Origin: an uncultured Candidatus Saccharibacteria bacterium
Lineage (GTDB): Bacteria; Patescibacteriota; Doudnabacteria; UBA920
NCBI GenBank assembly: GCA_964505635.1
Contig: CAZDIP010000003.1
Coordinates: 79,313-143,312 of the forward strand
Direction of reading: 5' to 3'
Length of the DNA stretch: 64,000 nt
Shown: positions 1 to 56,260 of the stretch, piece by piece
How the letters are laid out: each line of letters opens with the position of its first letter
Position numbering within the stretch: position 1 is the first letter of the stretch
Program-made: the position numbers and the translations under genes
Notes under the pieces: generated by a model
Databases searched by the model: none
Told to the model about the DNA's origin: nothing
The model's input: only the letters and a program-made list of their open reading frames with translations

Positions 1-823
1 CGGCGCTTGAGTCTAAAAACAATACCTTAGTATTTGGCGTAATACCAATGCTTTTCATTGTGTCTAAATATTGGTTTAAAGTTAAAATTGCCATAATCTC
101 CACATTGCCCTGGCCGGTTGCCTGTTTTATTATCTCCACAGACTGCCTAAGCCCGGCGGCAATCGCTTCGCGCTCTAAGGCTATACCTTCACCTTGCAGG
201 CGCTTTCGTTCTTTTTCCGCTTCCGCTTCTTTTACCGCCTGGATTTTTACCGCATCGCCTTTATATTCCGCAGCCTTTTTTAACTGTTCGCTCGCCACCA
301 CCTCGCTCATAGCCTGGGTAATAGTTGCTGGAAAAGAAACTTCAGTAATTTGAAACGAGCTAATTACCATACCCCACTCACTAAACTGCCTTTCTAAATC
401 GTTGCGGATATGAGAGGCTAATTCTTCTTTTTTCTCCAAAATTCCTTCGTGGGTTTCTTTGGCTATATAGGTTCTTAAAGAATTTTCTATAATTGCGCCG
501 ATGGACTGATTGCGAGACACTAAAGAGTACGTATATTTTTTTACACCCTCAACTGTTGGTTCAGCGGCGTAAATTAAGTTTGTGGAAATATCTACAATAA
601 CTTTGTCTTTGGAAGGATAGGTGTTTTTTATGGCGAAATTTTGCTGCCTTAAAGTCACTTTTTCCGCTACACGTTCTAAAAACGGGACTTTAAAATTCAA
701 GCCCGCGGTCATAATGCGGTTAAAACGTCCAAGCATTTCAATTACATAAACCGTGTTCTGCTGGACAATGCGTATGCTGGACAAAACCAGTAAAACAATA
801 ATAATCCAAAATATATACCACAT
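1..823 (-). CDS. SPFH/band-7 (stomatin/HflC-like) membrane protein; the ORF runs off the left edge of the window
   Basis: Minus-strand translation from the ATG at 821-823 gives MWYIFWIIIVLLVL (TM) followed by an SPFH-like core (NTVYVIEMLGRFNRIMTAGLNFKVPFLERV...). No stop before position 1. Confidence 0.7.
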   Translation of the reverse strand, partial: MWYIFWIIIVLLVLSSIRIVQQNTVYVIEMLGRFNRIMTAGLNFKVPFLERVAEKVTLRQQNFAIKNTYPSKDKVIVDISTNLIYAAEPTVEGVKKYTYSLVSRNQSIGAIIENSLRTYIAKETHEGILEKKEELASHIRNDLERQFSEWGMVISSFQITEVSFPATITQAMSEVVASEQLKKAAEYKGDAVKIQAVKEAEAEKERKRLQGEGIALEREAIAAGLRQSVEIIKQATGQGNVEIMAILTLNQYLDTMKSIGITPNTKVLFLDSSA

Positions 824-839
824 AATTTTTATTCTTTTA

Positions 840-957
840 CCATACCGAGTGCGGCCGAGGTATCCCTTTTGATTCAGCTTAAAACCTAAAAAGAGATTCT
901 TCCACCGTCATCCGCCCAAGGCGGACTATGGCGGACAGGTCGCTAGGCTCTGAATGG
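840..957 (-). repeat. R1 leader repeat, copy A (118 nt). Starts 17 nt upstream of the SPFH start codon.
   Basis: CCATACCGAGTGC...GGTATCCCTT...AGAGATTCTTC...GCTCTGAATGG. The terminal inverted repeats and internal hairpin core are shared with copies at 19117, 19514 and 56051. Confidence 0.6.
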
Positions 958-984
958 ATTAATATTCGCGCCCCAATTATATTC

Positions 985-2178
985 CTATTTTCTGGCTTTA
1001 GCAAGTTTCTTAATCGCGCTTACTTTATCCGTTTTCTCCCATGGAAACTTAACATCTGTCCTGCCAAAATGGCCATAGGCCGCGGTTTGTTCATAAATGG
1101 GTTTTTCCAGCTGCAGCTGCTTTATAATATCGGCCGGTTTTACCGGGAAAATTTGTTCGCAAATTGTCTGGAGCCTATCGTCCGCAATTTTACCGGTTCC
1201 ATAAGTTTCTATAAAAATAGAAACCGGCTTGGCCACGCCAATAGCATAAGCTAATTGAACCAAAGCTTTTTTAGCAAAGCCGCTGGCAACTATGTTTTTA
1301 GCAATATACCTAGCCGCGTAAGCTGCGCTTCTGTCCACCTTAGTTACGCACTTGCCCGAAAAAGCCCCGCCGCCGTGCGGCGCATAGCCGCCGTAAGTAT
1401 CTACAATTATTTTTCTGCCCGTAAGCCCCGCGTCCGCCGGCGGCCCGCCAATAATAAACCTACCCGTGGAATTTATAAAAATTTGTGTTTTCTTACTTAG
1501 CCATTTACCCAAAACCGGAGTTATGACATATTTTGTAATATCGCTTCTTAATTTCTCAGTGGTTACATTTTCGCTATGATGCGCCGCAATAACTACCGTG
1601 CCTACGCTTTTGGGTTTGCCATTTACATATTCTACTGAAACCTGGCTCTTGCCGTCCGGCCTAAGATAAGATAATTTTCCATTTTTTCTGACCTCGGACA
1701 ATTTTTTGGTTAATTTATGCGCAAGAGAAATAGGCAAAGGCATTAATTCCTTAGTTTCGTCGCACGCAAAACCAAACATCAGCCCCTGATCGCCCGCCCC
1801 CTGCTCTTTAAATTCCCCCTTGCCTTCGTCCACGCCCTGGGCTATGTCCGGCGACTGCTCGTGAAGCGTAGAAATAACCCCTACATCGCTATAAAAAAAA
1901 CCGTACTCCGGTTTATCGTACCCAATTTTTTTAAGCGTTCTTCTGACTACATCTTGAATATCCACATAAGCTTTAGTCCTGGCCTCGCCGCCAACTACGA
2001 CTAATCCTGTGGTTGCAAAGCACTCTATGCCGGCGTGAGCTTTTTTATCCTGCTTAAGCATTTCGTCGTAAATCGCGTCCGAAATCTGGTCGCAAATTTT
2101 GTCCGGATGCCCTTCGGTTACCGATTCAGAAGTAAATATTGTTCTGTGAGATAATGGTTTTTTGAGCTTCTGGCTCAT
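985..2178 (-). CDS. metK: S-adenosylmethionine synthetase
   Basis: 397 aa. MetK motifs [19 protein letters not shown] and DTYGG are present. Confidence 0.95.
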
Positions 2179-2189
2179 AAAAAAAATTC

Positions 2190-2285
2190 CTTTCTTATCT
2201 CCGCCAACTGGCAGATTGGCACCTTTCGGAAGGTTATTTACCGAAGGTTGCCGTCCCAGGTTAATTAGGGACTCTTGATAAGTAA
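2190..2285 (-). promoter_or_regulatory. SAM-I (S-box) riboswitch in the metK leader
   Basis: Minus-strand read: ACTTATCAAGAG...GGGAC GGCAACC...GGTGCCAA...GGAGATAAGAAAGGAAUUUUUUUAUG. The conserved AUCAAGAG, GGCAACC and GGUGCCAA boxes are present and CUUAUC/GAUAAG form the closing helix (P1). It ends about 12 nt before the metK ATG. Confidence 0.75.
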
Positions 2286-2325
2286 CTTATTATTTTCTGT
2301 ATGTTAATTAACTTTTTTTTGTTTG

Positions 2326-2856
2326 TCAACCAAAACCCGCTAAATGCGTGCCCAAAGGCTTATTTTTAATGCCTGTGCCGGTTGGATCTACGTCTATCCA
2401 TTTATCGCCTACCCGTACCTTCATATATTGGTGAATTATCATATTGGCAAAAGTATGCTTAAGCTTAACATCGCTTGCTTTAAAAAATTTGCTGTTAGCC
2501 AGAAGGGTGTAGAATAAAAAATTCATAGAGGTGCAATAAATAAACTCGTTAGTATTCCAAAGTTGCAAAATGTCTGTAATAAATGCCCGATACGGCCTTA
2601 AAGCCGCGTAAAGCCTTGTATGTTTCCACTGCCTTTGGTTTTTCTCCATTATTAAAGCATACGCCGCCTGCAAATACGACATTTGGTCATACGATTTATT
2701 TTCAAGTTCATAAATCGCTTTTTGTATTTCTGGCGGCACATTTGTGGGCGGGCTATATTGCCTAAAGCCCATAAACGGGATTATAAGCCTAAAGCCTACA
2801 AAAACCAATAAAAAATAACCGCAAATCACAATGGCGATTAATAAAAATAAATTCAT
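2326..2856 (-). CDS. hypothetical membrane protein
   Basis: 176-aa ORF with an N-terminal TM helix. No recognisable family. Confidence 0.5.
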   Translation of the reverse strand: MNLFLLIAIVICGYFLLVFVGFRLIIPFMGFRQYSPPTNVPPEIQKAIYELENKSYDQMSYLQAAYALIMEKNQRQWKHTRLYAALRPYRAFITDILQLWNTNEFIYCTSMNFLFYTLLANSKFFKASDVKLKHTFANMIIHQYMKVRVGDKWIDVDPTGTGIKNKPLGTHLAGFG

Positions 2857-2999
2857 ATTTTTTGTTTAATAAAATTCAACGCTGGGCTCTACGTAATTAT
2901 TTTTGAAGTAGGATAGTGGATGATGTTAGAACCAATTGACAAACCACGAGTGACCACTTCTTTATACCGACACTAACAATGGAATCAGCAAGAAATCCA

Positions 3000-3353
3000 T
3001 TACTGCTTAGAACTTAGGGCAATACAGTTTCCCTCTGAGTCTTCAAATTCTGCAACGAATCCAAATTCTCCAGTTGAAGTCTTTGGGAAAAGCTCTTTGC
3101 CTCCTTTTTCTAAAACATTTTTCATAGTCTCATCGATACTCTTAACATTAAAATATATTCTTGCTCCATCTTTTGATGGCTTATAACTTTCTCCTTTTGC
3201 AAGCGCTCCTACATAACCTGGAAAGAAAGCGAACTCATTCCCATGAATATTCTTAATTTCAAAATCAACACCAAAAACAAAACCATAAAAATCCATTGCT
3301 CTTTTTAAATCGGCTACAGAAATTTCAAAGTAAGATGCAGTTATTTTTGACAT
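3000..3353 (-). CDS. VOC/glyoxalase-bleomycin resistance family protein
   Basis: The ORF is trimmed to the M at 3353 (MSKITASYFEISVADLKRAMDFY...) because the longer ORF overlaps tRNA-Gly. The fold resembles a glyoxalase-like beta-alpha-beta-beta-beta module. Confidence 0.65.
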   Translation of the reverse strand: MSKITASYFEISVADLKRAMDFYGFVFGVDFEIKNIHGNEFAFFPGYVGALAKGESYKPSKDGARIYFNVKSIDETMKNVLEKGGKELFPKTSTGEFGFVAEFEDSEGNCIALSSKQ

Positions 3354-3377
3354 ATAATTTTTCGCTCCTAAATTTAG

Positions 3378-3452
3378 TGGAGCGGGTAGCGGGAGTCGAA
3401 CCCGCATCATCAGTTTGGAAAACTGAGATAATAACCGCTATACGATACCCGC
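3378..3452 (-). tRNA. tRNA-Gly (anticodon UCC)
   Basis: Reverse complement: GCGGGTA acceptor stem, D-arm, anticodon stem TCAGT/ACTGA with loop TTTCCAA, T-arm GGTTCGACTCC, and 3' CCA. Confidence 0.85.
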
Positions 3453-3542
3453 CTGCTTAAAAGCTTCGGCGGGCAAGCCCGCTTAATGCAATAAGTCAAT
3501 TCTTGATGATTATAGCTTTTTCTGACTTTTTTTTCAACCTAA

Positions 3543-3570
3543 AATCCCTCCGCCAGTTGGCGGAGGGATT
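3543..3570. terminator. hairpin terminator downstream of HU
   Basis: AATCCCTCCGCC-AGTT-GGCGGAGGGATT, flanked by an A-run and TATTTTTT. Confidence 0.5.
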
Positions 3571-3576
3571 TATTTT

Positions 3577-3894
3577 TTACATCGCAGGCTCGCTTGCAGG
3601 AGCTGGACCATTACTTCTTAGCTTAACCGCTTCCTTAAAGGCTTCGCCGGCTTTAAACTTTGGGGTGTTTAATTCCGGGATGGTAATTTTTTGCGAAGGA
3701 TTTCTCGGGTTAACGCCGATTCTCGGCGCTCTGTGCGAAACGCTAAACTGCCCGAATCCGCTAATATTAACCTTATCTCCGGCGCGCAGCTGTTCGTAAA
3801 TCATCTGAATTAAAGTATTTAAAAACCGTTCGGCATCGCTATGGGTTATGCCCAATTTAGCAGCCAATAATTCTGTAAGTTGTAATTTATTCAT
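3577..3894 (-). CDS. hup: DNA-binding protein HU with a C-terminal extension
   Basis: MNKLQLTELLAAKLGITHSDAERFLN...GFGQFSV...R.GVNPRN. This is the HU/IHF fold signature. Confidence 0.9.
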   Translation of the reverse strand: MNKLQLTELLAAKLGITHSDAERFLNTLIQMIYEQLRAGDKVNISGFGQFSVSHRAPRIGVNPRNPSQKITIPELNTPKFKAGEAFKEAVKLRSNGPAPASEPAM

Positions 3895-3991
3895 ATATTG
3901 CTCCTTTTGCGATTAATACTAATTCGTAAAAGTATACATACAGTATAGCTTATTTTACCCAAAAATACCAGAAACTAAAAAAACCTAAATT

Positions 3992-6563: not shown

Positions 6564-7361
6564 TTATTTATCCATCATTTCTTTTTGACTTACATATAAG
6601 CTATAAAAATCTTTATAAAAATCCAGTAAAAGGCTGTAAATTATATCTTTTTTTACCTGATCTTCCATTTCCCTTTTTTCAAACCCCATAATCCTGGTTA
6701 GTTGCCTCTTTACCCATTTTGAATCTTGCTGAAGAGCTGTTTTAACATCCTCCATAAAACTACCCCTAAGGCGTTTCTTCCCTTTCCTAAACTGATATTT
6801 TTCCAATAATGAAAATAATTCCTGGCTTTCCGGGGACAGAGGAATTTTTCTTTGTTCTTTAAAGTTTATGAGAGCTTCTCTATACTTTAAATAACGTGCC
6901 GCCGTGTGCGATTTATTTATTTCCTTTCGGACATATTTAATATACCTTCTTAATTCCTCGCTTAAACCTTGGGTCAGTCCCCCTGCATGCAATTTTAAAA
7001 AAAATCCTAATAAAACATCTTTCTGGGCTGTAAAATTTTCCTTTAAATAATTAAGCAAATTTGGAGTAAAATTTGCCTGTATATCTTTAGAGGGAGTAAG
7101 TGTGCCCAATTTTTCCAAAACGGTTTTTTGAATATAAAGGTCAAGCTGCCTTTTAATTAACAAAAAATCCTCTTGTTGTGGGTTAAACCTTGTTAATTGA
7201 CTGGTTAATTGCCTGGTTTCCTGTGGCTCCATATTTAAACCATATTGAATGAGCCATTGTTTTTCAGCTTCTGAGAGAGGCAAGCTATTTATTGTGCTGA
7301 CTATTTCAGTCTGCTCTGGCCTATAATCTGGTTGGTTTGGAAAGTTAGGATTTTCTGACAT
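6564..7361 (-). CDS. hypothetical protein (266 aa; Lys/Glu-rich)
   Basis: The long ORF is trimmed to MSENPNFPNQ. Upstream codons overlap groEL in another frame and cross a terminator. Confidence 0.6.
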   Translation of the reverse strand: MSENPNFPNQPDYRPEQTEIVSTINSLPLSEAEKQWLIQYGLNMEPQETRQLTSQLTRFNPQQEDFLLIKRQLDLYIQKTVLEKLGTLTPSKDIQANFTPNLLNYLKENFTAQKDVLLGFFLKLHAGGLTQGLSEELRRYIKYVRKEINKSHTAARYLKYREALINFKEQRKIPLSPESQELFSLLEKYQFRKGKKRLRGSFMEDVKTALQQDSKWVKRQLTRIMGFEKREMEDQVKKDIIYSLLLDFYKDFYSLYVSQKEMMDK

Positions 7362-7483: not shown

Positions 7484-9160
7484 TTAGTAATCCATCCCCA
7501 TACCGCCCATTCCGCCCGGCATACCTCCGCCCATGGGGGCAGATGCTTTGGGTTCCGGCTTGTCTACGACTATGGCTTCGGTGGTTACCAAAGTGGAGGC
7601 AATGGAAGCGGCATGCTGCAAAGCCAGCCTCGCGACCTTCAAAGGGTCCACAATTCCGGCCTTCATCATGTCTTCCACTAATCCGGCTTCCCACTTGCCT
7701 TCGCCGTACTTGGTAAAATCATATCCAACATGCGAGGATTTGGAGGACTGAATATAAGAAATAATTCCGGTTGGCTCAATGCCGCTATTGGAGGCTATTT
7801 GCCTTAAAGGAGCTTCCAAAGAATCCTTAACTACTTTAACTCCGGCGCGTTCAGCGTAAGTCATTTCCTTGCCCAAGTCTTCCAGTTTCGGGGCAATTTT
7901 AGCCAAAGCCGCGCCTCCGCCGGCCACAATTCCCTCTTCAACAGCCGCGCGGGTAGCGTTTAGCGCGTCCTCTATCTTAAACTTCTTGGCTTTCATTTCG
8001 GTTTCGGTAAACGCGCCCACTTTTATAACGCCCACGCCGCCGGAAAGGCGCGCCATTCTCTCATGCAATTTTTCCTTGTCGTAATCTGAAGTTGATGCTT
8101 TATATTCGGCTTTAATTTGGTTCACGCGGGCTTCAATCGCGGATTTTTCTCCCTGACCGTCAACTACAGTAGTATATTCTTTAGTGGCTATGACTTTACG
8201 GGCACGGCCAAGCTGCTCTAAAGTAGCAGAGTCTAATTTTAAACCCATTTCGTCGGAAATAACCTGGCCTCCGGTTAAAACGGCAATATCCTGAAGCATT
8301 TCTTTTCTTCTGTCGCCAAAACCAGGCGCCTTGACTGCCAAAACATTAAAAGTACCTTTTAATTTATTTATAACAAAAGTTGTTAAAGCTTCGCCTTCCA
8401 CTTCGTCGGCAATAATTACCAAATCTTTTTTGCCGCTCTGCGCCACTTTTTCCAAAAGCGGTAAAATTTCCTGGACAGAAGAAACTTTTTTGTCAGTAAT
8501 TAAAATATATGGATCCTGCCAAACCGCTTCCATTCTTTGCGTGTCGGTAACCATGTACGGATTTACAAAACCTTTATCAAAGCGCATGCCTTTTACCACT
8601 TCTTTTTGTAAGCCCGTAGTCTGGCCTTCTTCCACGGTAATAACCCCCTCGTGCCCGACTTCTTCCATAGCTTCGGAAATCAATTTCCCCACTTCCGCGT
8701 CCAAACTCGCTATTGTGGCCACCTGCTGGATTTCTTCTTTGGTTTTAACTTCCTTTTTGACTTTCTTTAATTCTTCCACCACAAACTCAACAGCTTTGTC
8801 CATGCCCCGCTTAATGTCGCCTGAATGGCTGGAGGCTAATGCCGCGGCTTCAAAAGCTTTTTCTATCATTTTTTGGGCTAAAACCGTGGCTGTGGTCGTT
8901 CCATCACCCGCCTCTTCATTGGTTTTGTTGGCAACTTCCTGAATTAAAGAAGCGCCGATGTTTTCAAATTTGTCTTCCAACTCAATTTCCTTAGCTACTG
9001 TAACCCCGTCGTCTGAAATAGTGGGACTGCCAAAACCCTTATCCAAAATAACGGCTTTGCCGGTCGGCCCCAAAGTTACTTTTACTGCGTTGGCGGCAAT
9101 ATCCACGCCATTTTTTATAGCCTGCTTGGCTGCAAAGCCAGACTTGATAATTTTTGACAT
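7484..9160 (-). CDS. groL: chaperonin GroEL (Cpn60)
   Basis: 558 aa. [26 protein letters not shown] and a C-terminal GGM repeat. Confidence 0.97.
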
Positions 9161-17461: not shown

Positions 17462-17998
17462 TTATTGAGAAGCTAAAATTTCATTGGTTCTCGACTTGGC
17501 TCGAACAATATTTATTACAATTGCGTACCCGCCAAATAAAGCTACCGAATAAAACATATCGCCCATAAGAGTTCCGCGTAAAAATGGCAAACCGTTTACA
17601 TAAGCCTGCGTAATTCCTGAAAAATTATGCGGGTAGTTGGAATACAAAAAGGCAAAATTGGTGACTAAGAAAAATACAGCGGAAGCAGCAAGTGAGGATC
17701 CGACTATTTTTGGCCATCGATGGGTATTTGAATGCTTAATCCAAACCCCAAAAAGTATTCCGGACAAATGCGAAGCATAAATTGCCAGCATCATCGGCCA
17801 GGACACAAAGCCAATAAATATGTCGCTTACAAGCCTTGCGGCCAAAGTTATACCCGCTGCTTTTTTCCATTCCATATTTGCGGCGGCAAAAATCGCCAAA
17901 GCCGTAATCGGCGCAAAGTTAGGGATATGAGGGATAAAACGGGAGATAACCGCTAAAATTATAACTAAATATATAATCATAAATTTTGCTTTATACAT
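17462..17998 (-). CDS. polytopic membrane protein, family unknown
   Basis: 178 aa with 5-6 predicted TM helices. Confidence 0.5.
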   Translation of the reverse strand: MYKAKFMIIYLVIILAVISRFIPHIPNFAPITALAIFAAANMEWKKAAGITLAARLVSDIFIGFVSWPMMLAIYASHLSGILFGVWIKHSNTHRWPKIVGSSLAASAVFFLVTNFAFLYSNYPHNFSGITQAYVNGLPFLRGTLMGDMFYSVALFGGYAIVINIVRAKSRTNEILASQ

Positions 17999-18468: not shown

Positions 18469-19107
18469 CTAATAATCTATTCCTCTCTGCGCCAATATAC
18501 CTTTATAGTACGGGTGCTTAATCATAGACATTTCCGTTATTAAATCGCACCGTTCCATAATTTTAGGGTATTTATTGTGCCCAGTCAAAACCAAATGTTG
18601 AAGCGGCATTTTTATATCTATTAAATCCACAATATCACGCTCTTCTATTAATTTAGATTCCAAAGCCGATATTATTTCATCTAAAATAATTACTTGGTAC
18701 TTTCCGCTGGTTATTATTTCTTTGGCTCTGTTTAAACCATCCAGCGCCGCCTTTATATGCGCCTCTTTTTCTTTCTTGTCGCCCAATATGCCTACAAAAC
18801 CGGCGCCCAGCTGTTCATTATCTATACGTCCTATACGACTTATATGGCCTATATTGTTTAAAAACTCAATTTCACTGCTTACCGGCCACTCCCCGTCTTT
18901 AATATCCTCCGATGACTTCCCTTTAGCCTTAACAAATTGCAAAATGCAAACATTCATCCCAGCGCCTGCAGCTCTAATGGCCATACCCATAGCCGCCGTA
19001 GTCTTCCCCTTGCCCGCGCCTAAATAGCAAATCACCAAACCTTTAGGTTCGTCTGAAAATTTTGTGGGCATTTTCAGTTTTGATTTTTTAGATTTATTTT
19101 TGATCAT
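18469..19107 (-). CDS. cobA: cob(I)yrinic acid a,c-diamide / corrinoid adenosyltransferase (CobA/CobO/BtuR type)
   Basis: GAGKGKTTAAMGMAIRAAG...ILQFVK. Confidence 0.85.
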   Translation of the reverse strand: MIKNKSKKSKLKMPTKFSDEPKGLVICYLGAGKGKTTAAMGMAIRAAGAGMNVCILQFVKAKGKSSEDIKDGEWPVSSEIEFLNNIGHISRIGRIDNEQLGAGFVGILGDKKEKEAHIKAALDGLNRAKEIITSGKYQVIILDEIISALESKLIEERDIVDLIDIKMPLQHLVLTGHNKYPKIMERCDLITEMSMIKHPYYKGILAQRGIDY

Positions 19108-19116
19108 ACAATCTTA

Positions 19117-19199
19117 ACCATTCCGAACGAAGTGAGGAATCCCTTTGTAGTTTATTGAGGGACTCTTCCCCCTCGCAAAGCCTCGGGGTCTGAGTGGTT
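19117..19199 (-). repeat. R1 leader repeat, copy D. Starts 10 nt upstream of the cobA ATG.
   Basis: AACCATTCCGAACG...GGAATCCCTTT...GGGACTCTTCC...GGTCTGAGTGGTT. Confidence 0.6.
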
Positions 19200-19211
19200 A
19201 CAATTATTTGA

Positions 19212-19502
19212 TTACAATAAATTCTGATACAAATCTTTCCACCCGGGATTTATTGTGCGAATTAAATCTTCTTTCTTTTTTCTGCTCCAGCCCTTTACTT
19301 GCTTTTCTCTAGCCAAAGCGGCATCGAAACAATCCGATACTCCATAATAAACCAACTTATGACAACCATATTTTAAAGTAAACCCTTTAACTACTCCATT
19401 TTTATGTTCCCATACTCGCTTGACTAAATTGCTTGTAAATCCTGTATACAAAGTACCACTATTGCTGGCCATTATATAAACTGCGTAAATAGCTTCTTCC
19501 AT
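19212..19502 (-). CDS. GIY-YIG nuclease-domain protein (YhbQ-like)
   Basis: AVYIMASNSGTLYTGFTSNLVKRVWEHK. Confidence 0.8.
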   Translation of the reverse strand: MEEAIYAVYIMASNSGTLYTGFTSNLVKRVWEHKNGVVKGFTLKYGCHKLVYYGVSDCFDAALAREKQVKGWSRKKKEDLIRTINPGWKDLYQNLL

Positions 19503-19513
19503 GACATTAGCTT

Positions 19514-19599
19514 AACCATTCCGACCCCGAAGGCTCCAGCGAGGGGAAGGAATCCCTTTATTTAAGAATAAGAGATCCTTCGCTACGCTCTGGATGGTT
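19514..19599 (-). repeat. R1 leader repeat, copy C. Starts 12 nt upstream of the GIY-YIG ATG.
   Basis: AACCATTCCGACCCCGAAGG...GGAATCCCTTTA...AGAGATCCTTCGCTACGCTCTGGATGGTT. Confidence 0.6.
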
Positions 19600-19632
19600 A
19601 TTTTACTTAATAGGCGGCGGGAAACCGCCGCC

Positions 19633-19665
19633 TTGCTTGATACTTACTACCTACTACTTGCTACT
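19633..19665. repeat. R3 direct repeat, copy 2
   Basis: gccttgcttgaTACTTACTACCTACTACTTGCTACT, preceded by the hairpin GGCGGCGGGAAACCGCCGCC. Confidence 0.7.
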
Positions 19666-19736
19666 AAAATAAACCTCTCTGCCTCGGATGCACTCGACAT
19701 CTCTCCCAAAAGGAGAGAAATATATTGTGCTTCGCT

Positions 19737-39987: not shown

Positions 39988-40590
39988 ATGAAATGGTTAT
40001 TTTGGATTACGTTGGTGGTGTTTGTGTGGGTGGGTGGATGCCAGAGCCTGGCTCTGGGCCCGGTTGACTTGTTGGTTGAGCTGCTGGGGGTGGGACTCAT
40101 AACGCTTGCCAATGCGCTCTTGGCTTGGCTGATAATGTCTTGGCTGGCGAACTGGATGCAGGTTCAAAGTCCGAGGCTCGTAAAATCCTGGATTTTGTTC
40201 CTTCTCCTGTTAGGAATACCTCACTACTACGCCAGCTACAAGCTGGCGCCGCTCAAGCGTCAGTTCCGAACCATCGCGAGCGGCAGCGGGCAGGTGGAAG
40301 CCGGAGAACCCGGCGGCATCAACACCCTCAACTTTGGGGGGGAGTTAGACAAAATTGTCTTCCTCCGCATGCGGTGGCTGGCACAGCACCAGTACCTGCC
40401 AGCAGGTTCTGGTAAGTGGTGGGTGACTGACGGCTATTCGCCCAATCTGGCGATGTTGTACTTCCGGTTACCGCTTACAAAAAAGTGGTACGACAGAATG
40501 ATGGTCGACGCCATCGGCGCCGACTACTACAAACTCCTGGGCGAAAGCCCACCAGCAGAAACCAAAGCGCAGCCTAAAAAGCTGCGCTAA
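39988..40590 (+). CDS. high-GC polytopic membrane protein (island gene 4)
   Basis: AAGGAGG SD 6 nt before the ATG. 200 aa. Three N-terminal TM helices followed by a soluble domain. Confidence 0.7.
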   Translation: MKWLFWITLVVFVWVGGCQSLALGPVDLLVELLGVGLITLANALLAWLIMSWLANWMQVQSPRLVKSWILFLLLLGIPHYYASYKLAPLKRQFRTIASGSGQVEAGEPGGINTLNFGGELDKIVFLRMRWLAQHQYLPAGSGKWWVTDGYSPNLAMLYFRLPLTKKWYDRMMVDAIGADYYKLLGESPPAETKAQPKKLR

Positions 40591-45466: not shown

Positions 45467-45587
45467 AAAGTTATTTCGCAACATTTGGTGGACAATAGAG
45501 GACTCGAACCTCTGACCTCGCCGATGTGAACGGCGCGCTCTAACCAACTGAGCTAATTGTCCTCACCAAGTGTTGCGAAATAACTTT
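45467..45587. repeat. 17-bp perfect inverted repeat bracketing tRNA-Val
   Basis: AAAGTTATTTCGCAACA (45467-45483) pairs with TGTTGCGAAATAACTTT (45571-45587). Confidence 0.8.
45486..45562 (-). tRNA. tRNA-Val (anticodon CAC)
   Basis: Reverse complement: GGACAAT acceptor stem, D-arm GCTCAGTTGGTTAGAGC, anticodon loop TTCACAT, T-arm GGTTCGAGTCC, and 3' CCA. Confidence 0.85.
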
Positions 45588-54937: not shown

Positions 54938-56038
54938 TTACAGGTCTAATAGTATTGCCGCGATCCAAGGAAAAACCACTGTGGCGTCGCTTTGAATTAT
55001 TTGGTAGTAGCTTTTAGTAGAAAGTTTATCCCAAGTAATTTTTTCTTTTCCTCCAGCGCCGGAGTAAGAGCCGTAAGACATAGGTGAGGAGCCTATTTCT
55101 ATAAACCCGGCCCAGTCGCGAACATTGTGGTGGCGAAGGTCGTGCTTTATAGAAGGCACTACGCAAATAGGAAAGTCGGCCGCAATGCCGCCGCCAAGCT
55201 GTAAGAAAGCAATTGGAGAATTTTTAGACTCTTTAATATACCAGTCGTACATTAAGTGAAAGTATTCTAAACCACTTTTCATAACCTGACCGTCTAAAAA
55301 TACATCGTTCTTACCCTTTAGACTGCCTGAGTAAGTGTAAGAAGCAAAAATATTTCCCATGGTGGAGTCTTCAAAACCGGGAATTACAATAGGAATGTCT
55401 TTTTCGTAAGCCGCATAGGTCCAGCTGTCGAGCGGGTTAGCTTTTTTGTCTGGCTTGATTAATTTTTCTTTGTAAAGCCTTCTAAAATATTCGTGGGGGA
55501 AGTAGCGTTCTTTTTTCTTTTCGGCCTCCTGCCACATCTTTAAAAGATGCGGCTCCATAATTCTTACGCTTTCGTCTTCCGGTAAAAAGGTGTCGGTAAT
55601 TCTCCGTAGCCCAGCGTCCCTAAGTTCTGCTTCTTGCTCGGGCGTAAGTTCGGTATAACGAGGAATATAAGCGTAGTGTGAATGAGCAACATAACGGTAA
55701 TAGCTTTCTTCGTGGTTAGCGCCGGTGGCAGAAACTAAGTGAACTTTGTTTTTCCTAATTAATTCTGCCAGCATAACGCCCACTTGGAAAGAGGAAAGCG
55801 CCCCGGCTATGGTAACTACTAATTTACCGCCATTTTTTAAATGTTCCTTAAGCCACAAAGCGGACTGAAGGGCAGCCCCGGCGTTTAAGTGGTTTAAAGT
55901 TCTTTCCGCGTAGGCGGAAACCGGCCGACCCGCACCTTTTACATGAGCGGTTATACTGCCTGTAGTTTTGCTGTTTGGTTCTTCGTGTATAAGTTTTTGC
56001 AAACCTTTGGAAAGTTTACCTATTTTTTTAGTGTCCAT
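54938..56038 (-). CDS. deoxyhypusine synthase-like protein (candidate homospermidine synthase)
   Basis: Collinear with DHS: VVTIAGA, IPGFEDSTMGNIF, LQLGGGIAADF. Confidence 0.8.
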   Translation of the reverse strand: MDTKKIGKLSKGLQKLIHEEPNSKTTGSITAHVKGAGRPVSAYAERTLNHLNAGAALQSALWLKEHLKNGGKLVVTIAGALSSFQVGVMLAELIRKNKVHLVSATGANHEESYYRYVAHSHYAYIPRYTELTPEQEAELRDAGLRRITDTFLPEDESVRIMEPHLLKMWQEAEKKKERYFPHEYFRRLYKEKLIKPDKKANPLDSWTYAAYEKDIPIVIPGFEDSTMGNIFASYTYSGSLKGKNDVFLDGQVMKSGLEYFHLMYDWYIKESKNSPIAFLQLGGGIAADFPICVVPSIKHDLRHHNVRDWAGFIEIGSSPMSYGSYSGAGGKEKITWDKLSTKSYYQIIQSDATVVFPWIAAILLDL

Positions 56039-56050
56039 AAATATTTTTTA

Positions 56051-56117
56051 CCATACCGAGTGCACCCGAGGTATCCCTTAAATTAATTAAAGGGATTCTT
56101 CGCTACGCTCTGAATGG
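56051..56117 (-). repeat. R1 leader repeat, copy B (minimal 67-nt form). Starts 13 nt upstream of the DHS-like ATG.
   Basis: CCATACCGAGTGCACCCGAGGTATCCCTTAAATTAATTAAAGGGATTCTTCGCTACGCTCTGAATGG. Confidence 0.6.
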
Positions 56118-56260
56118 TGGTTTGTTTCCCCGCGAATTCCTGTCTTTCAAGTTCGAGCGGCTTAATTACAAAATAATTTTAACAAATAAGATTTGTGTGT
56201 CAATCTAAATACTAAAGTAGCGGCTGTTGCCTCTCGACTTTGTTCGAGACATTCGCCAGC

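Follow-up and report, generated by a model that had tools for sequence, protein, structure and literature searches.

The 64,000-nt stretch analysed here, hereafter the window, belongs to contig CAZDIP010000003.1 of an uncultured Candidatus Saccharibacteria bacterium and contains four copies of a structured repeat, R1, each lying shortly upstream of a start codon on the minus strand (Table 1). The genes that follow the four copies were identified with Pfam as encoding an SPFH/Band_7 protein, a CobA/BtuR protein, a small GIY-YIG nuclease and a deoxyhypusine-synthase-like (DHS-like) protein, which agrees with the names used in a preliminary description of the same sequence. Two of the copies bracket the GIY-YIG gene, an arrangement already noticed in that description and which proved to be the decisive clue to the nature of the element. 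R1 is probably a non-coding, selfish palindromic DNA repeat from a superfamily that accompanies small single-domain GIY-YIG nucleases, namely the Ssn proteins with their NTS and SRM repeats; this superfamily overlaps the CGTC-tagged REPs, the dRS3 repeats of Neisseria and the RPE-4 and RPE-6 elements of Rickettsia.

R1 and the nuclease gene in the window

The core pattern GAAGRRTCYCTY-N(5-35)-AAGGGATWCCTY matches the window four times, always on the minus strand, and is absent from 100 shuffled versions of it. A covariance model trained on 61 family members, the four window copies among these, and run on the 64 kb with filters off likewise returns exactly four copies with E-values between 3e-9 and 4e-12. 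The scores are 43.8 bits for copy 1 (E = 3e-9), 49.8 for copy 2, 54.0 for copy 3 and 54.7 for copy 4, no further site exceeds 12.5 bits, and the minus strand outscores the plus strand by 12-21 bits at each copy (21 bits at copy 1). Number, orientation and, to within 1-3 nt, coordinates are thereby as first described, and the measured distances to the start codons fall within the 9-17 nt given earlier. Short R1 motifs scored singly are not above chance in the window; it is the combined architecture alone that exceeds it.

Read along the minus strand, the element opens with the outer 5′ arm (CCAYYCAGAGC) and, after 5-44 nt of variable sequence, continues with the inner 5′ arm (GAAGRRTCYCTY); a 10-22 nt loop separates the latter from the inner 3′ arm (AAGGGATWCCTY), and another 7-23 nt of variable sequence lead to the outer 3′ arm (CTCGGWATGG). 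The total length is 69-120 nt. The two inner arms pair with each other in a central helix and the outer arms form imperfect terminal inverted repeats, so that the shared architecture outlined in the preliminary description, including the variable inserts, was recovered. Each R1 is an inverted pair of units, whose tags (the bases preceding the AT that opens the stem) point outward and whose tails face each other across the short loop. Copy 4 represents the minimal form and, folded as single-stranded DNA, reaches -10.1 kcal/mol on the minus strand and -11.3 kcal/mol on the plus strand (z = -2.2 and -3.4, respectively), while an extra 39-nt hairpin module is present in copy 1 between the outer and the inner helix.

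Table 1. Position of the R1 copies and of the GIY-YIG gene in the window
Feature	Coordinates	Strand	Description
R1 copy 1	839..958	minus	120 nt; metK-to-SPFH spacer; 16 nt before the SPFH ATG at 823
R1 copy 2	19117..19198	minus	82 nt; 11 nt past the GIY-YIG stop; 10 nt before the cobA ATG at 19107
GIY-YIG gene	19212..19502	minus	96 aa, single domain; between R1 copies 3 and 2
R1 copy 3	19515..19598	minus	84 nt; spacer between the ribonucleotide reductase (RNR) and GIY-YIG genes; 13 nt before the GIY-YIG ATG at 19502
R1 copy 4	56050..56118	minus	69 nt, minimal form; 12 nt before the DHS-like ATG at 56038
R1 copy 4, arms	56107-56118; 56090-56101; 56080-56089; 56068-56079; 56050-56060		outer 5′ arm; inner 5′ arm; loop; inner 3′ arm; outer 3′ arm

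The protein encoded between copies 3 and 2 matches the Pfam GIY-YIG family over residues 6-78 (E = 1.7e-14) and no other Pfam family, and none of the NCBIfam models match it. A length of 96 aa, a single GIY-YIG domain and the lack of a DNA-binding extension place it within the size range (about 94-100 aa) and domain composition of the Ssn proteins, the ~94-aa single-domain GIY-YIG proteins (CDD cd10448) described by Chenal et al. 2025 (Nat Commun, PMC11893778). The spacing of its Y9, Y19 and E66 resembles that of Y6, Y17 and E64, the residues mutated in the same study. In addition, the gene has repeats directly on both sides, which is the arrangement reported for ssn genes, flanked by NTS (CGTCATTCCCGCGMAVGCGGGAATCYRG), the long form of dRS3, and by SRM relatives, with repeats found nearby for 71% of ssnA homologues (PMC11893778). 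The 96-aa protein is a candidate for the cognate Ssn-type single-stranded-DNA nuclease of the R1 family.

Three further stretches of the window deserve mention. Next to the tRNA gene at 45489-45562, the plus-strand segment 45592-45640 (CCATACCGACATCTG...GAGGGATTTT) resembles one degenerate R1 unit, with an outer arm, an interior and an inner-arm-like GAGGGAT in the order of a unit; the dimer model gives no match there, and single units or remnants may therefore be undercounted. A GC-rich hairpin, AAGGCGGCGGTTTCCCGCCGCCT, lies between the RNR stop codon and copy 3 (19612-19634, minus), and similar ones are found in the related loci L079, L084, L085 and L087 (loci from other genomes are given here by such L numbers). 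The minus-strand stretch 19650-19735 (TTCTCTCC...GGAGAGATGTCGAGTGCATCCGAGGCAGAGAGG) is conserved with L084. It contains the motif GAGTGCATCCGAG, which also serves as a module of the variable segments in the R1 copies of L048, L070 and L093, and the stretch may therefore be a decayed unit.

R1 and homologues of the nuclease gene in other genomes

Homologues of the 96-aa protein number 336 at E <= 1e-10. Those with 72-76% identity occupy the same slot in the order NrdR - RNR - [GIY-YIG] - CobA, and the arrangement RNR-[GIY-YIG]-[R1]-cobA is kept in five lineages (the window, L084, L085, L087 and L090). The R1 copy that follows the nuclease gene in the last four is in sense orientation and begins at, or overlaps, the stop codon (TAA of TAACCAC...), and across the five lineages the end of R1 is 6-13 nt from the cobA ATG; two copies are present between the two genes in L084 and L090. 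Upstream of the nuclease gene, a full copy is found elsewhere only in L090 (weak, 21.8 bits) among the syntenic relatives checked, L084 and L087 having a half element with the inner arm abutting the ATG, L085 remnants and L079 nothing. The last of these loci is syntenic from the RNR gene onward and encodes a CobA 83% identical to that of the window; neither a GIY-YIG gene nor any R1 copy was found in its 7 kb with filters off. The copy between GIY-YIG and cobA travels with the nuclease gene and not with cobA.

Similar bracketing by repeats surrounds homologues in L084, L085, L087, L090, L091, L093 (two genes), L068 and L076. Homologues picked by protein similarity alone stand in four other neighbourhoods, namely pheS-[gene]-pheT in L091 (Buchananbacteria), after transketolase and before GAPDH in L093 (Doudnabacteria, two genes) and before recA in L095. 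In L091 and for both genes of L093, the two halves of the element, TGTCATTCCGAG..GAGGAATCCCTT on the 5′ side and AAGGGATCCCTC..CTCGGGATGACA on the 3′ side, exactly enclose the open reading frame (ORF), as exemplified by TGTCATTCCGAGGGAGTGCATCCGACCGAGGAATCCCTT-agt-ATG...TAA-taaact-AAGGGATCCCTCGGCCGTATTCCCAGGCCTCGGGATGACA in L093. More complex nested inverted repeats lie on either side of the homologue in the recA context, and a two-helix bracket made of variant sequences surrounds those of L068 and L076. As two units bracket the GIY-YIG gene both in the window and in unrelated neighbourhoods, the short R1 copies look like unit-nuclease-unit cassettes devoid of the gene.

A link to the published Ssn family comes from cultured organisms. 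Homologues 59-61% identical to the window protein are encoded by Nitrosomonas nitrosa and Leptolyngbya PCC 6406, where they are surrounded by related units. The Leptolyngbya protein (P0102) is 61% identical over 92% of the length of the window protein, and the three repeats around its gene fit the Neisseria NTS consensus at every position, which indirectly ties the window protein family to Ssn. The association of repeat and nuclease is clear only from this protein-first search; starting from the element, GIY-YIG genes were near R1 in 3 of 68 loci, and an enrichment was not demonstrable.

Two side observations concern the homologues. In L023, two of them (6951-7229 and 7893-8000) are directly flanked by 5′ and 3′ tRNA halves and thus lie inside what look like tRNA genes; group I introns in tRNA genes are described for Patescibacteria (PMC13011429), and these ORFs may correspond to them. 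A ComEC-type competence gene (DUF4131 and Competence domains) is located ~3 kb downstream of the GIY-YIG/R1 cassette in L084 (7287-8291) and L085 (7612-8291), which is possibly a coincidence and is of interest because the Neisseria Ssn acts on transforming DNA.

The distribution of R1 itself was obtained by searching 185,579 reference genomes once for the inner-arm pattern, which yielded 78 loci against ~8 expected by chance according to our own estimate. With the four window copies counted in, 62 pattern matches also have both outer arms, which are not part of the search pattern. Patescibacteria make up most of the hosts (Magasanikbacteria, Doudnabacteria, Saccharibacteria, Gracilibacteria and several metagenome-assembled genomes, MAGs, labelled Gammaproteobacteria); the remaining ones are Acidobacteriota, Chloroflexota, Armatimonadota, a Caldithrix MAG, a Clostridiales MAG and Bacteroides faecalis. 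Canonically the family reads tGTCATCCTGAGCg...GAAGGATCCCTT-loop-AAGGGATTCCTC...cGCTCGGAATGACa, with TGTCATCCTGAGC and GCTCGGAATGACA as the short form of its outer ends; canonical copies terminate in TGTCAT...ATGACA and the window subfamily in (A)ACCAT...ATGGT(T). Phage collections gave no R1-type match, and the sole matches in the phage and plasmid collections are on two Hymenobacter plasmids, which carry a perfect-palindrome variant (GTCATGCTGAGCG..GAAGCATCTCTAC) where the mismatches of the canonical form are resolved.

In the alignment of 61 sequences the inner arms are fixed by the search pattern, and free evidence of pairing is provided by the outer helix and by the extension of the inner one. 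Paired cells account for 85% of the helices, compared with 41-52% for slid controls, and compensatory changes are seen both in the outer helix (three outermost pairs) and where the inner helix is extended. The loop varies from 5 to 35 nt among family members and is conserved neither in length nor in sequence; the remaining non-terminal internal sequence is conserved as strongly as the ends.

Further copies occur in peculiar settings. Head-to-tail arrays of full and partial units (GTCATCCTGAGCGGAGCGAAGGATCTC...) flank the matches in L029, L036, L053, L071 and L078, which belong to Acidobacteriota and other non-Patescibacteria, and the dimer model catches only some of these units. Two identical copies of Bacteroides faecalis (L045 5699-5779 and L052 6759-6839), located on different contigs of one cultured strain, have flanks identical for at least 70 nt on each side, so that R1 is there part of a larger duplicated unit.

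Conserved genes harbour at least 12 in-frame copies, in both orientations and in different frames; none of the four window copies is intragenic. Ten of the intragenic copies were checked with Pfam (L018, L027, L034, L040, L043, L063, L064, L069, L072 and L006); the genes encode UvrD, a beta-CASP nuclease, PriA, DnaX, MnmA, DinB, a Mur ligase, a class I aminoacyl-tRNA synthetase, a GT4 glycosyltransferase and UvrA, and replication and repair genes are over-represented among those with an in-frame R1. The inserts add ~27-42 residues, and nine of the ten genes have Pfam domains on both sides of the insert or one domain match running across it; the exception is DnaX (L040), where the strong matches are all upstream of the insert and one weak match (26.6 bits) follows it. 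Furthermore, the ORF pairs closely flanking seemingly intergenic copies were unrelated complete genes, and not split halves, in five of the five cases tested. Since the reading frame is kept and the flanking ORFs are complete genes, the intragenic copies appear to be translated inserts, and an intron-like element removed from the RNA was rejected on these grounds.

Comparison of orthologous sites documents presence and absence. The metK-SPFH spacer of L058 holds the ortholog of copy 1, with 46 of 47 positions identical in the four arms (98%), which is above the 78.5% identity of the SPFH gene itself; loop and variable segments are unrelated to those of copy 1 and 48 nt shorter. The same spacer is devoid of R1 in L067, which is syntenic with window positions 1-3924. 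What the spacer holds in L067 (4481-4944) is a pair of small overlapping ORFs (82 and 72 aa) in a toxin-antitoxin-like arrangement, and with R1 in the window and this pair in L067 the site appears as a repeated landing place for small mobile cassettes. Moreover, the DUF6580 gene downstream of cobA contains a 30-aa in-frame R1 insert in L084 (6259-6348) and L087 (6680-6769), which is absent in the window, L085 and L079. In the window (gene at 17462-17998, minus) the empty site, at 17714-17723, is a perfect 10-bp palindrome, CCATCGATGG; it resembles the joined CCAT...ATGG ends of R1 and may hint at the target.

Explanations of the repeat

If R1 is a selfish repeat accompanied by an Ssn-type nuclease, it would become single-stranded during replication, DNA uptake or repair and would then fold, and the cognate nuclease would bind the folded element and nick it a few bases outside the tag. 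This sequence of events is modelled on four purified Ssn homologues, which bind the folded repeat solely when it is single-stranded DNA and make their cut upstream of the tag, at a distance of a few bases; double-stranded DNA, RNA and the reverse strand are left uncut (PMC11893778). Nicking could drive the copying of the repeat to new places, which is speculative, or could only restrict incoming R1-bearing DNA, by analogy with Neisseria meningitidis, where Ssn restricts transformation by NTS-bearing DNA and the documented role is not transposition (PMC11893778). The location before start codons in the window would then reflect tolerance to insertion and the landing site of the nuclease cassette, copies 2 and 3 being the putative borders of a cassette which landed just upstream of cobA. 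A bolder proposal is that the Ssn-type GIY-YIG nuclease is the mobilising enzyme ('transposase') of a class of hairpin-ended single-stranded-DNA elements, with unit-nuclease-unit as the autonomous form and R1 as gene-less derivatives spread in compact Patescibacteria genomes and persisting in frame even in essential replication and repair genes; the NTS-ssnA-NTS layout has itself been likened to an insertion sequence (PMC11893778). We regard this proposal as tentative and rather doubtful. If true, it would supply the 'missing enzyme' of CGTC-type REPs and Rickettsia-type palindromic elements, and the specificity of the nuclease would have co-evolved with the changed tag (ACC/TCC for GTC) in the window lineage.

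The preliminary description had taken the common orientation and spacing of the four copies as a sign of a function in expression. A cis-acting element of this sort, be it a mobile 5′ leader, a promoter cassette or a regulatory RNA hairpin affecting transcription, mRNA stability or translation, now appears improbable. What speaks for it in the window is that each of the four copies has the sense orientation relative to the gene that follows and ends 10-16 nt short of the ATG of that gene, and that promoter-like sites precede two of them, on the minus strand: TTGACA-16-TAAAAT with a TG extension at 56203-56176, upstream of copy 4 (11 of 12 matches), and TTGCTA-17-TATAAT at 1004-976, upstream of copy 1 (10 of 12) and overlapping the metK stop codon. 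The predicted transcript starts would be ~50 nt and ~11 nt from the respective R1, so that copies 4 and 1 would be transcribed as hairpins in 5′ untranslated regions (UTRs). The copy between GIY-YIG and cobA, whose place and strand are kept in five lineages, is one point that favours a non-random position, and the arms of the L058 copy are, as seen above, better conserved than the gene beside them; across the family, sense copies are in weak excess (22:10). Against this stands the behaviour of the family, assessed on 88 elements with simple and thus crude ORF-based gene calls, in related loci drawn from many genomes, which are not independent samples. Co-directional spacers hold 22 sense and 10 antisense copies (p = 0.05), 15 copies are nearer the downstream start codon and 18 nearer the upstream stop codon (medians of 25 and 28 nt), and convergent and divergent spacers hold copies as well. 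Even among relatives with CCAT-type ends like those of the window, the copies of L039, L051 and L042 are antisense and those of L058 and L062 sense. The transcribed strand is the better folder in 16 of 32 spacer copies, and for three of the four window copies it is the non-transcribed strand that has the better fold. R1 is missing upstream of orthologs of two of the downstream genes (cobA in L079, the SPFH gene in L067), copies lodged in frame within genes are common, and no sigma-70-like promoter is present within any of the four copies, for which reason a promoter inside R1 was rejected. At gathering thresholds Rfam finds only 5S rRNA and tRNAs in the window and only tRNAs in 18 canonical-copy loci, and permissive scans, those of the four copies included, returned generic miRNA-like hairpin noise only; R1 matches no Rfam family. 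As 43 of 54 window genes are on the minus strand (43:11) and GC skew has one sign throughout, R1 orientation is confounded with gene strand and replication strand, and the shared orientation of the four copies, to be expected from either strand effect alone, is not attributable to expression; at the family sense fraction of ~0.7, four sense copies out of four have a probability of ~0.24 by our own arithmetic.

The mixed orientation and position which the preliminary description had named as contrary to its idea are thus what the relatives display, outside this genome, and the regular spacing to start codons in the window is no evidence of regulation. Of its comparison with a MITE (miniature inverted-repeat transposable element) family or a modular 5′-UTR RNA, the modular structured repeat comparable to MITEs stands, and the expression RNA finds no support; the folding and covariation analysis it proposed supports the helices and reveals no strand bias. 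An expression role of R1 is not supported, and the family behaves as selfish DNA, with mixed orientation, unbiased position in spacers and tandem arrays.

Other candidates were discarded more directly. An intrinsic terminator was rejected as neither strand has a T-run after the hairpin; self-cleaving ribozymes (hammerhead, twister, hairpin) were rejected by eye for the absence of core motifs and of any Rfam match; integron attC sites, considered for the imperfect palindrome with conserved mismatches, were rejected as GTTRRRY/RYYYAAC cores are absent and the arrays are without cassettes. As a side observation on translation, a Shine-Dalgarno-like motif at -18 to -6 precedes 12 of the 54 window genes of at least 100 aa, most starts following A/T-rich sequence, as do those of all four genes downstream of R1; judging from these sequences, the organism seems to rely mainly on Shine-Dalgarno-independent initiation.

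Two further accounts concern the origin and movement of the repeat. That R1 is a classical MITE, derived by deletion from an insertion sequence and mobilised in trans through a DDE-type transposase binding its terminal inverted repeats, would suit its small size, its 10-12 bp terminal inverted repeats, its many and mostly intergenic copies and their presence or absence among relatives. No consistent target-site duplication was found at the borders of 69 copies, where the best direct repeat measures 0 nt in 31, 2-3 nt in 27 and 4-5 nt in 11, without a common length or sequence; moreover, the internal sequence is conserved like the ends, such coding versions as were found all contain a GIY-YIG gene and not a transposase, and in-frame survival and the dimer-of-units design fit REP/RPE-type repeats better. 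With these observations, a classical MITE is very unlikely indeed. The other account separates the two partners, R1 being an independent palindrome moved otherwise or kept by the host, for example as a mark of its own DNA in natural transformation, and the GIY-YIG gene a free-standing gene of homing-endonuclease type which prefers to land in or beside such palindromes, so that the association would be a matter of target choice. It draws on the location of the genes between housekeeping genes (RNR/cobA, pheS/pheT, near recA) and within apparent tRNA genes in L023, on the variable layout of the repeats, on the many R1 loci without GIY-YIG within 8 kb and on the Neisseria pair, documented in the restriction of transforming DNA and not in transposition (PMC11893778). 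Against it, the loop expected to serve as landing site is unconserved in both length and sequence, the published biochemistry shows that Ssn recognise the repeat itself (PMC11893778), and the relative without the gene (L079) is also without every R1 copy in 7 kb; this account is held to be unlikely, if somewhat less so than an expression element.

Several points weigh against the assignment of R1 to the repeats of Ssn-type nucleases. The (C/T)GTC tag, whose bases matter most for cleavage in Neisseria (PMC11893778), is found in the family at large and is replaced by ACC/TCC in the window subfamily. The SRM search sequence, HGTCWYN(0-2)YYVSBRHN(0-5)WNVSBRGN(0-2)RNCYNB, applied to both strands, fails on all four window copies and on all 71 R1 elements with scores of 43 bits or more; its single match in the window (40402-40428) is unrelated to R1, and as positive controls the flanks of GIY-YIG homologues gave three matches in L102 and one in L068. 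Taken alone, R1 half-units have folding energies of -0.3 to -1.9 kcal/mol and z ~0, no better than shuffles, and a half-unit with an inserted hairpin reaches -5.7 kcal/mol (z = -0.2), compared with -8.9 kcal/mol (z = -4.6) for an NTS control unit. Solved structures matched by the 96-aa protein are of UPF0213 only (1ZG2, 1YWL), which does not fix its subfamily. The layout of the repeats varies, with tags facing the gene in Leptolyngbya and a half element before the gene and a full one after it in L084 and L087. A weak sense excess of 22:10 is present as well, and the analysis covers 64 kb of this genome, the statistics of orientation and position being derived from related genomes.

The description of R1 as a selfish repeat of Ssn-type nucleases has some practical consequences. 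As the published SRM motif misses the R1 branch (0 of 75 copies), current censuses of Ssn repeats are probably undercounts. The occurrence of a nuclease gene between repeat halves together with gene-less copies in frame is the kind of evidence needed for asking whether Ssn proteins mobilise their repeats. Repeats of this kind yield spurious small ORFs and odd inserts of 30-40 aa in the conserved proteins of MAGs. Finally, each divergent pair of nuclease and repeat is a candidate new specificity for the single-stranded-DNA-cutting tools proposed by Chenal et al. (PMC11893778).

R1 among published repeat systems

R1 joins three literatures on one kind of object, those on Rickettsia palindromic elements, on CGTC-tagged REPs with the Neisseria dRS3, and on the Ssn/NTS system of 2025, and its occurrence extends the object to Patescibacteria and soil phyla. 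Rickettsia palindromic elements in general were reportedly the subject of work by Ogata and colleagues in 2000. Literature searches with raw R1 sequence words returned primer coincidences only, and those on Patescibacteria with MITE or RNA motif returned nothing relevant. In its main text, a survey of conserved prokaryotic MITEs (PMC11602168) mentions neither GIY-YIG nor Patescibacteria.

The closest likeness is with Ssn/NTS, in which a GIY-YIG gene of ~95 aa is flanked on both sides by a multi-copy structured repeat, as it is by R1. The design of the NTS/SRM unit is also that of R1, with a tag, a stem beginning and ending in AT, then a C and a pyrimidine-rich tail, and canonical R1 relatives open with TGTC-AT or CGTC-AT, like the SRM/NTS tag, where the window copies have AACC-AT, ATCC-AT and CACC-AT. 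The two differ in that single R1 units have only 4-5 continuous base pairs, the stable fold being that of the complete inverted dimer, in which variable hairpins accompany two nested helices. Furthermore, many copies of the R1 family are in frame within genes, whereas NTS lies in genes in just 2% of cases in N. meningitidis, in a study which leaves Patescibacteria unmentioned (PMC11893778).

The CGTC-tagged repeats of Di Nocera et al. 2013 consist of a CGTC, TGTC or CCTC tag, an AT-starting stem of 8-9 bp, a short loop of 4-5 nt and a CCA tail; they are mostly inverted dimers, occur in five phyla and within replication and repair genes, are considered equivalent to the Neisseria dRS3 and the Rickettsia RPE-4 and RPE-6, and have no known dedicated transposase (PMC3733652). 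R1 shares with them the inverted dimer (which is the rule for every R1), a tag of this type in its canonical copies, the AT-starting stem, the spread over several phyla, the tolerance of in-frame copies and the lack of a known transposase, and its copies in UvrD, UvrA, PriA, DnaX and DinB parallel the CGTC repeats in replication and repair genes. It has a C after the stem and differs in its interrupted stems (ATCCT-GAGCGAAGCGA-AGGAT, with a GAGCG..GCGAA interior), in the tail (CCCTT or CTCTT) and in the variable inserted hairpins. Clustering like that of the R1 tandem arrays has been reported for Neisseria and Wolbachia repeats.

With the REP/REPIN and RAYT systems (REPtrons), R1 has in common short palindromic units arranged in inverted pairs, many copies and one gene for an enzyme acting on single-stranded DNA and flanked by the repeats. 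In contrast to these, it lacks the GTAG tag, it is found within genes, and its enzyme is of the GIY-YIG type and not an IS200-like tyrosine (HuH) transposase. Bacterial MITEs such as the Correia elements of Neisseria are, like R1, small and multi-copy, with terminal inverted repeats, often near gene starts and co-transcribable; unlike Correia-type MITEs, R1 has neither a target-site duplication nor an internal promoter-like sequence, and no related element with a DDE transposase was found, no systematic search for one having been made. As it falls outside the published definitions of SRM, R1 is filed as a divergent, dimeric variant of the Ssn-related kind of repeat and not as an SRM in the published sense.

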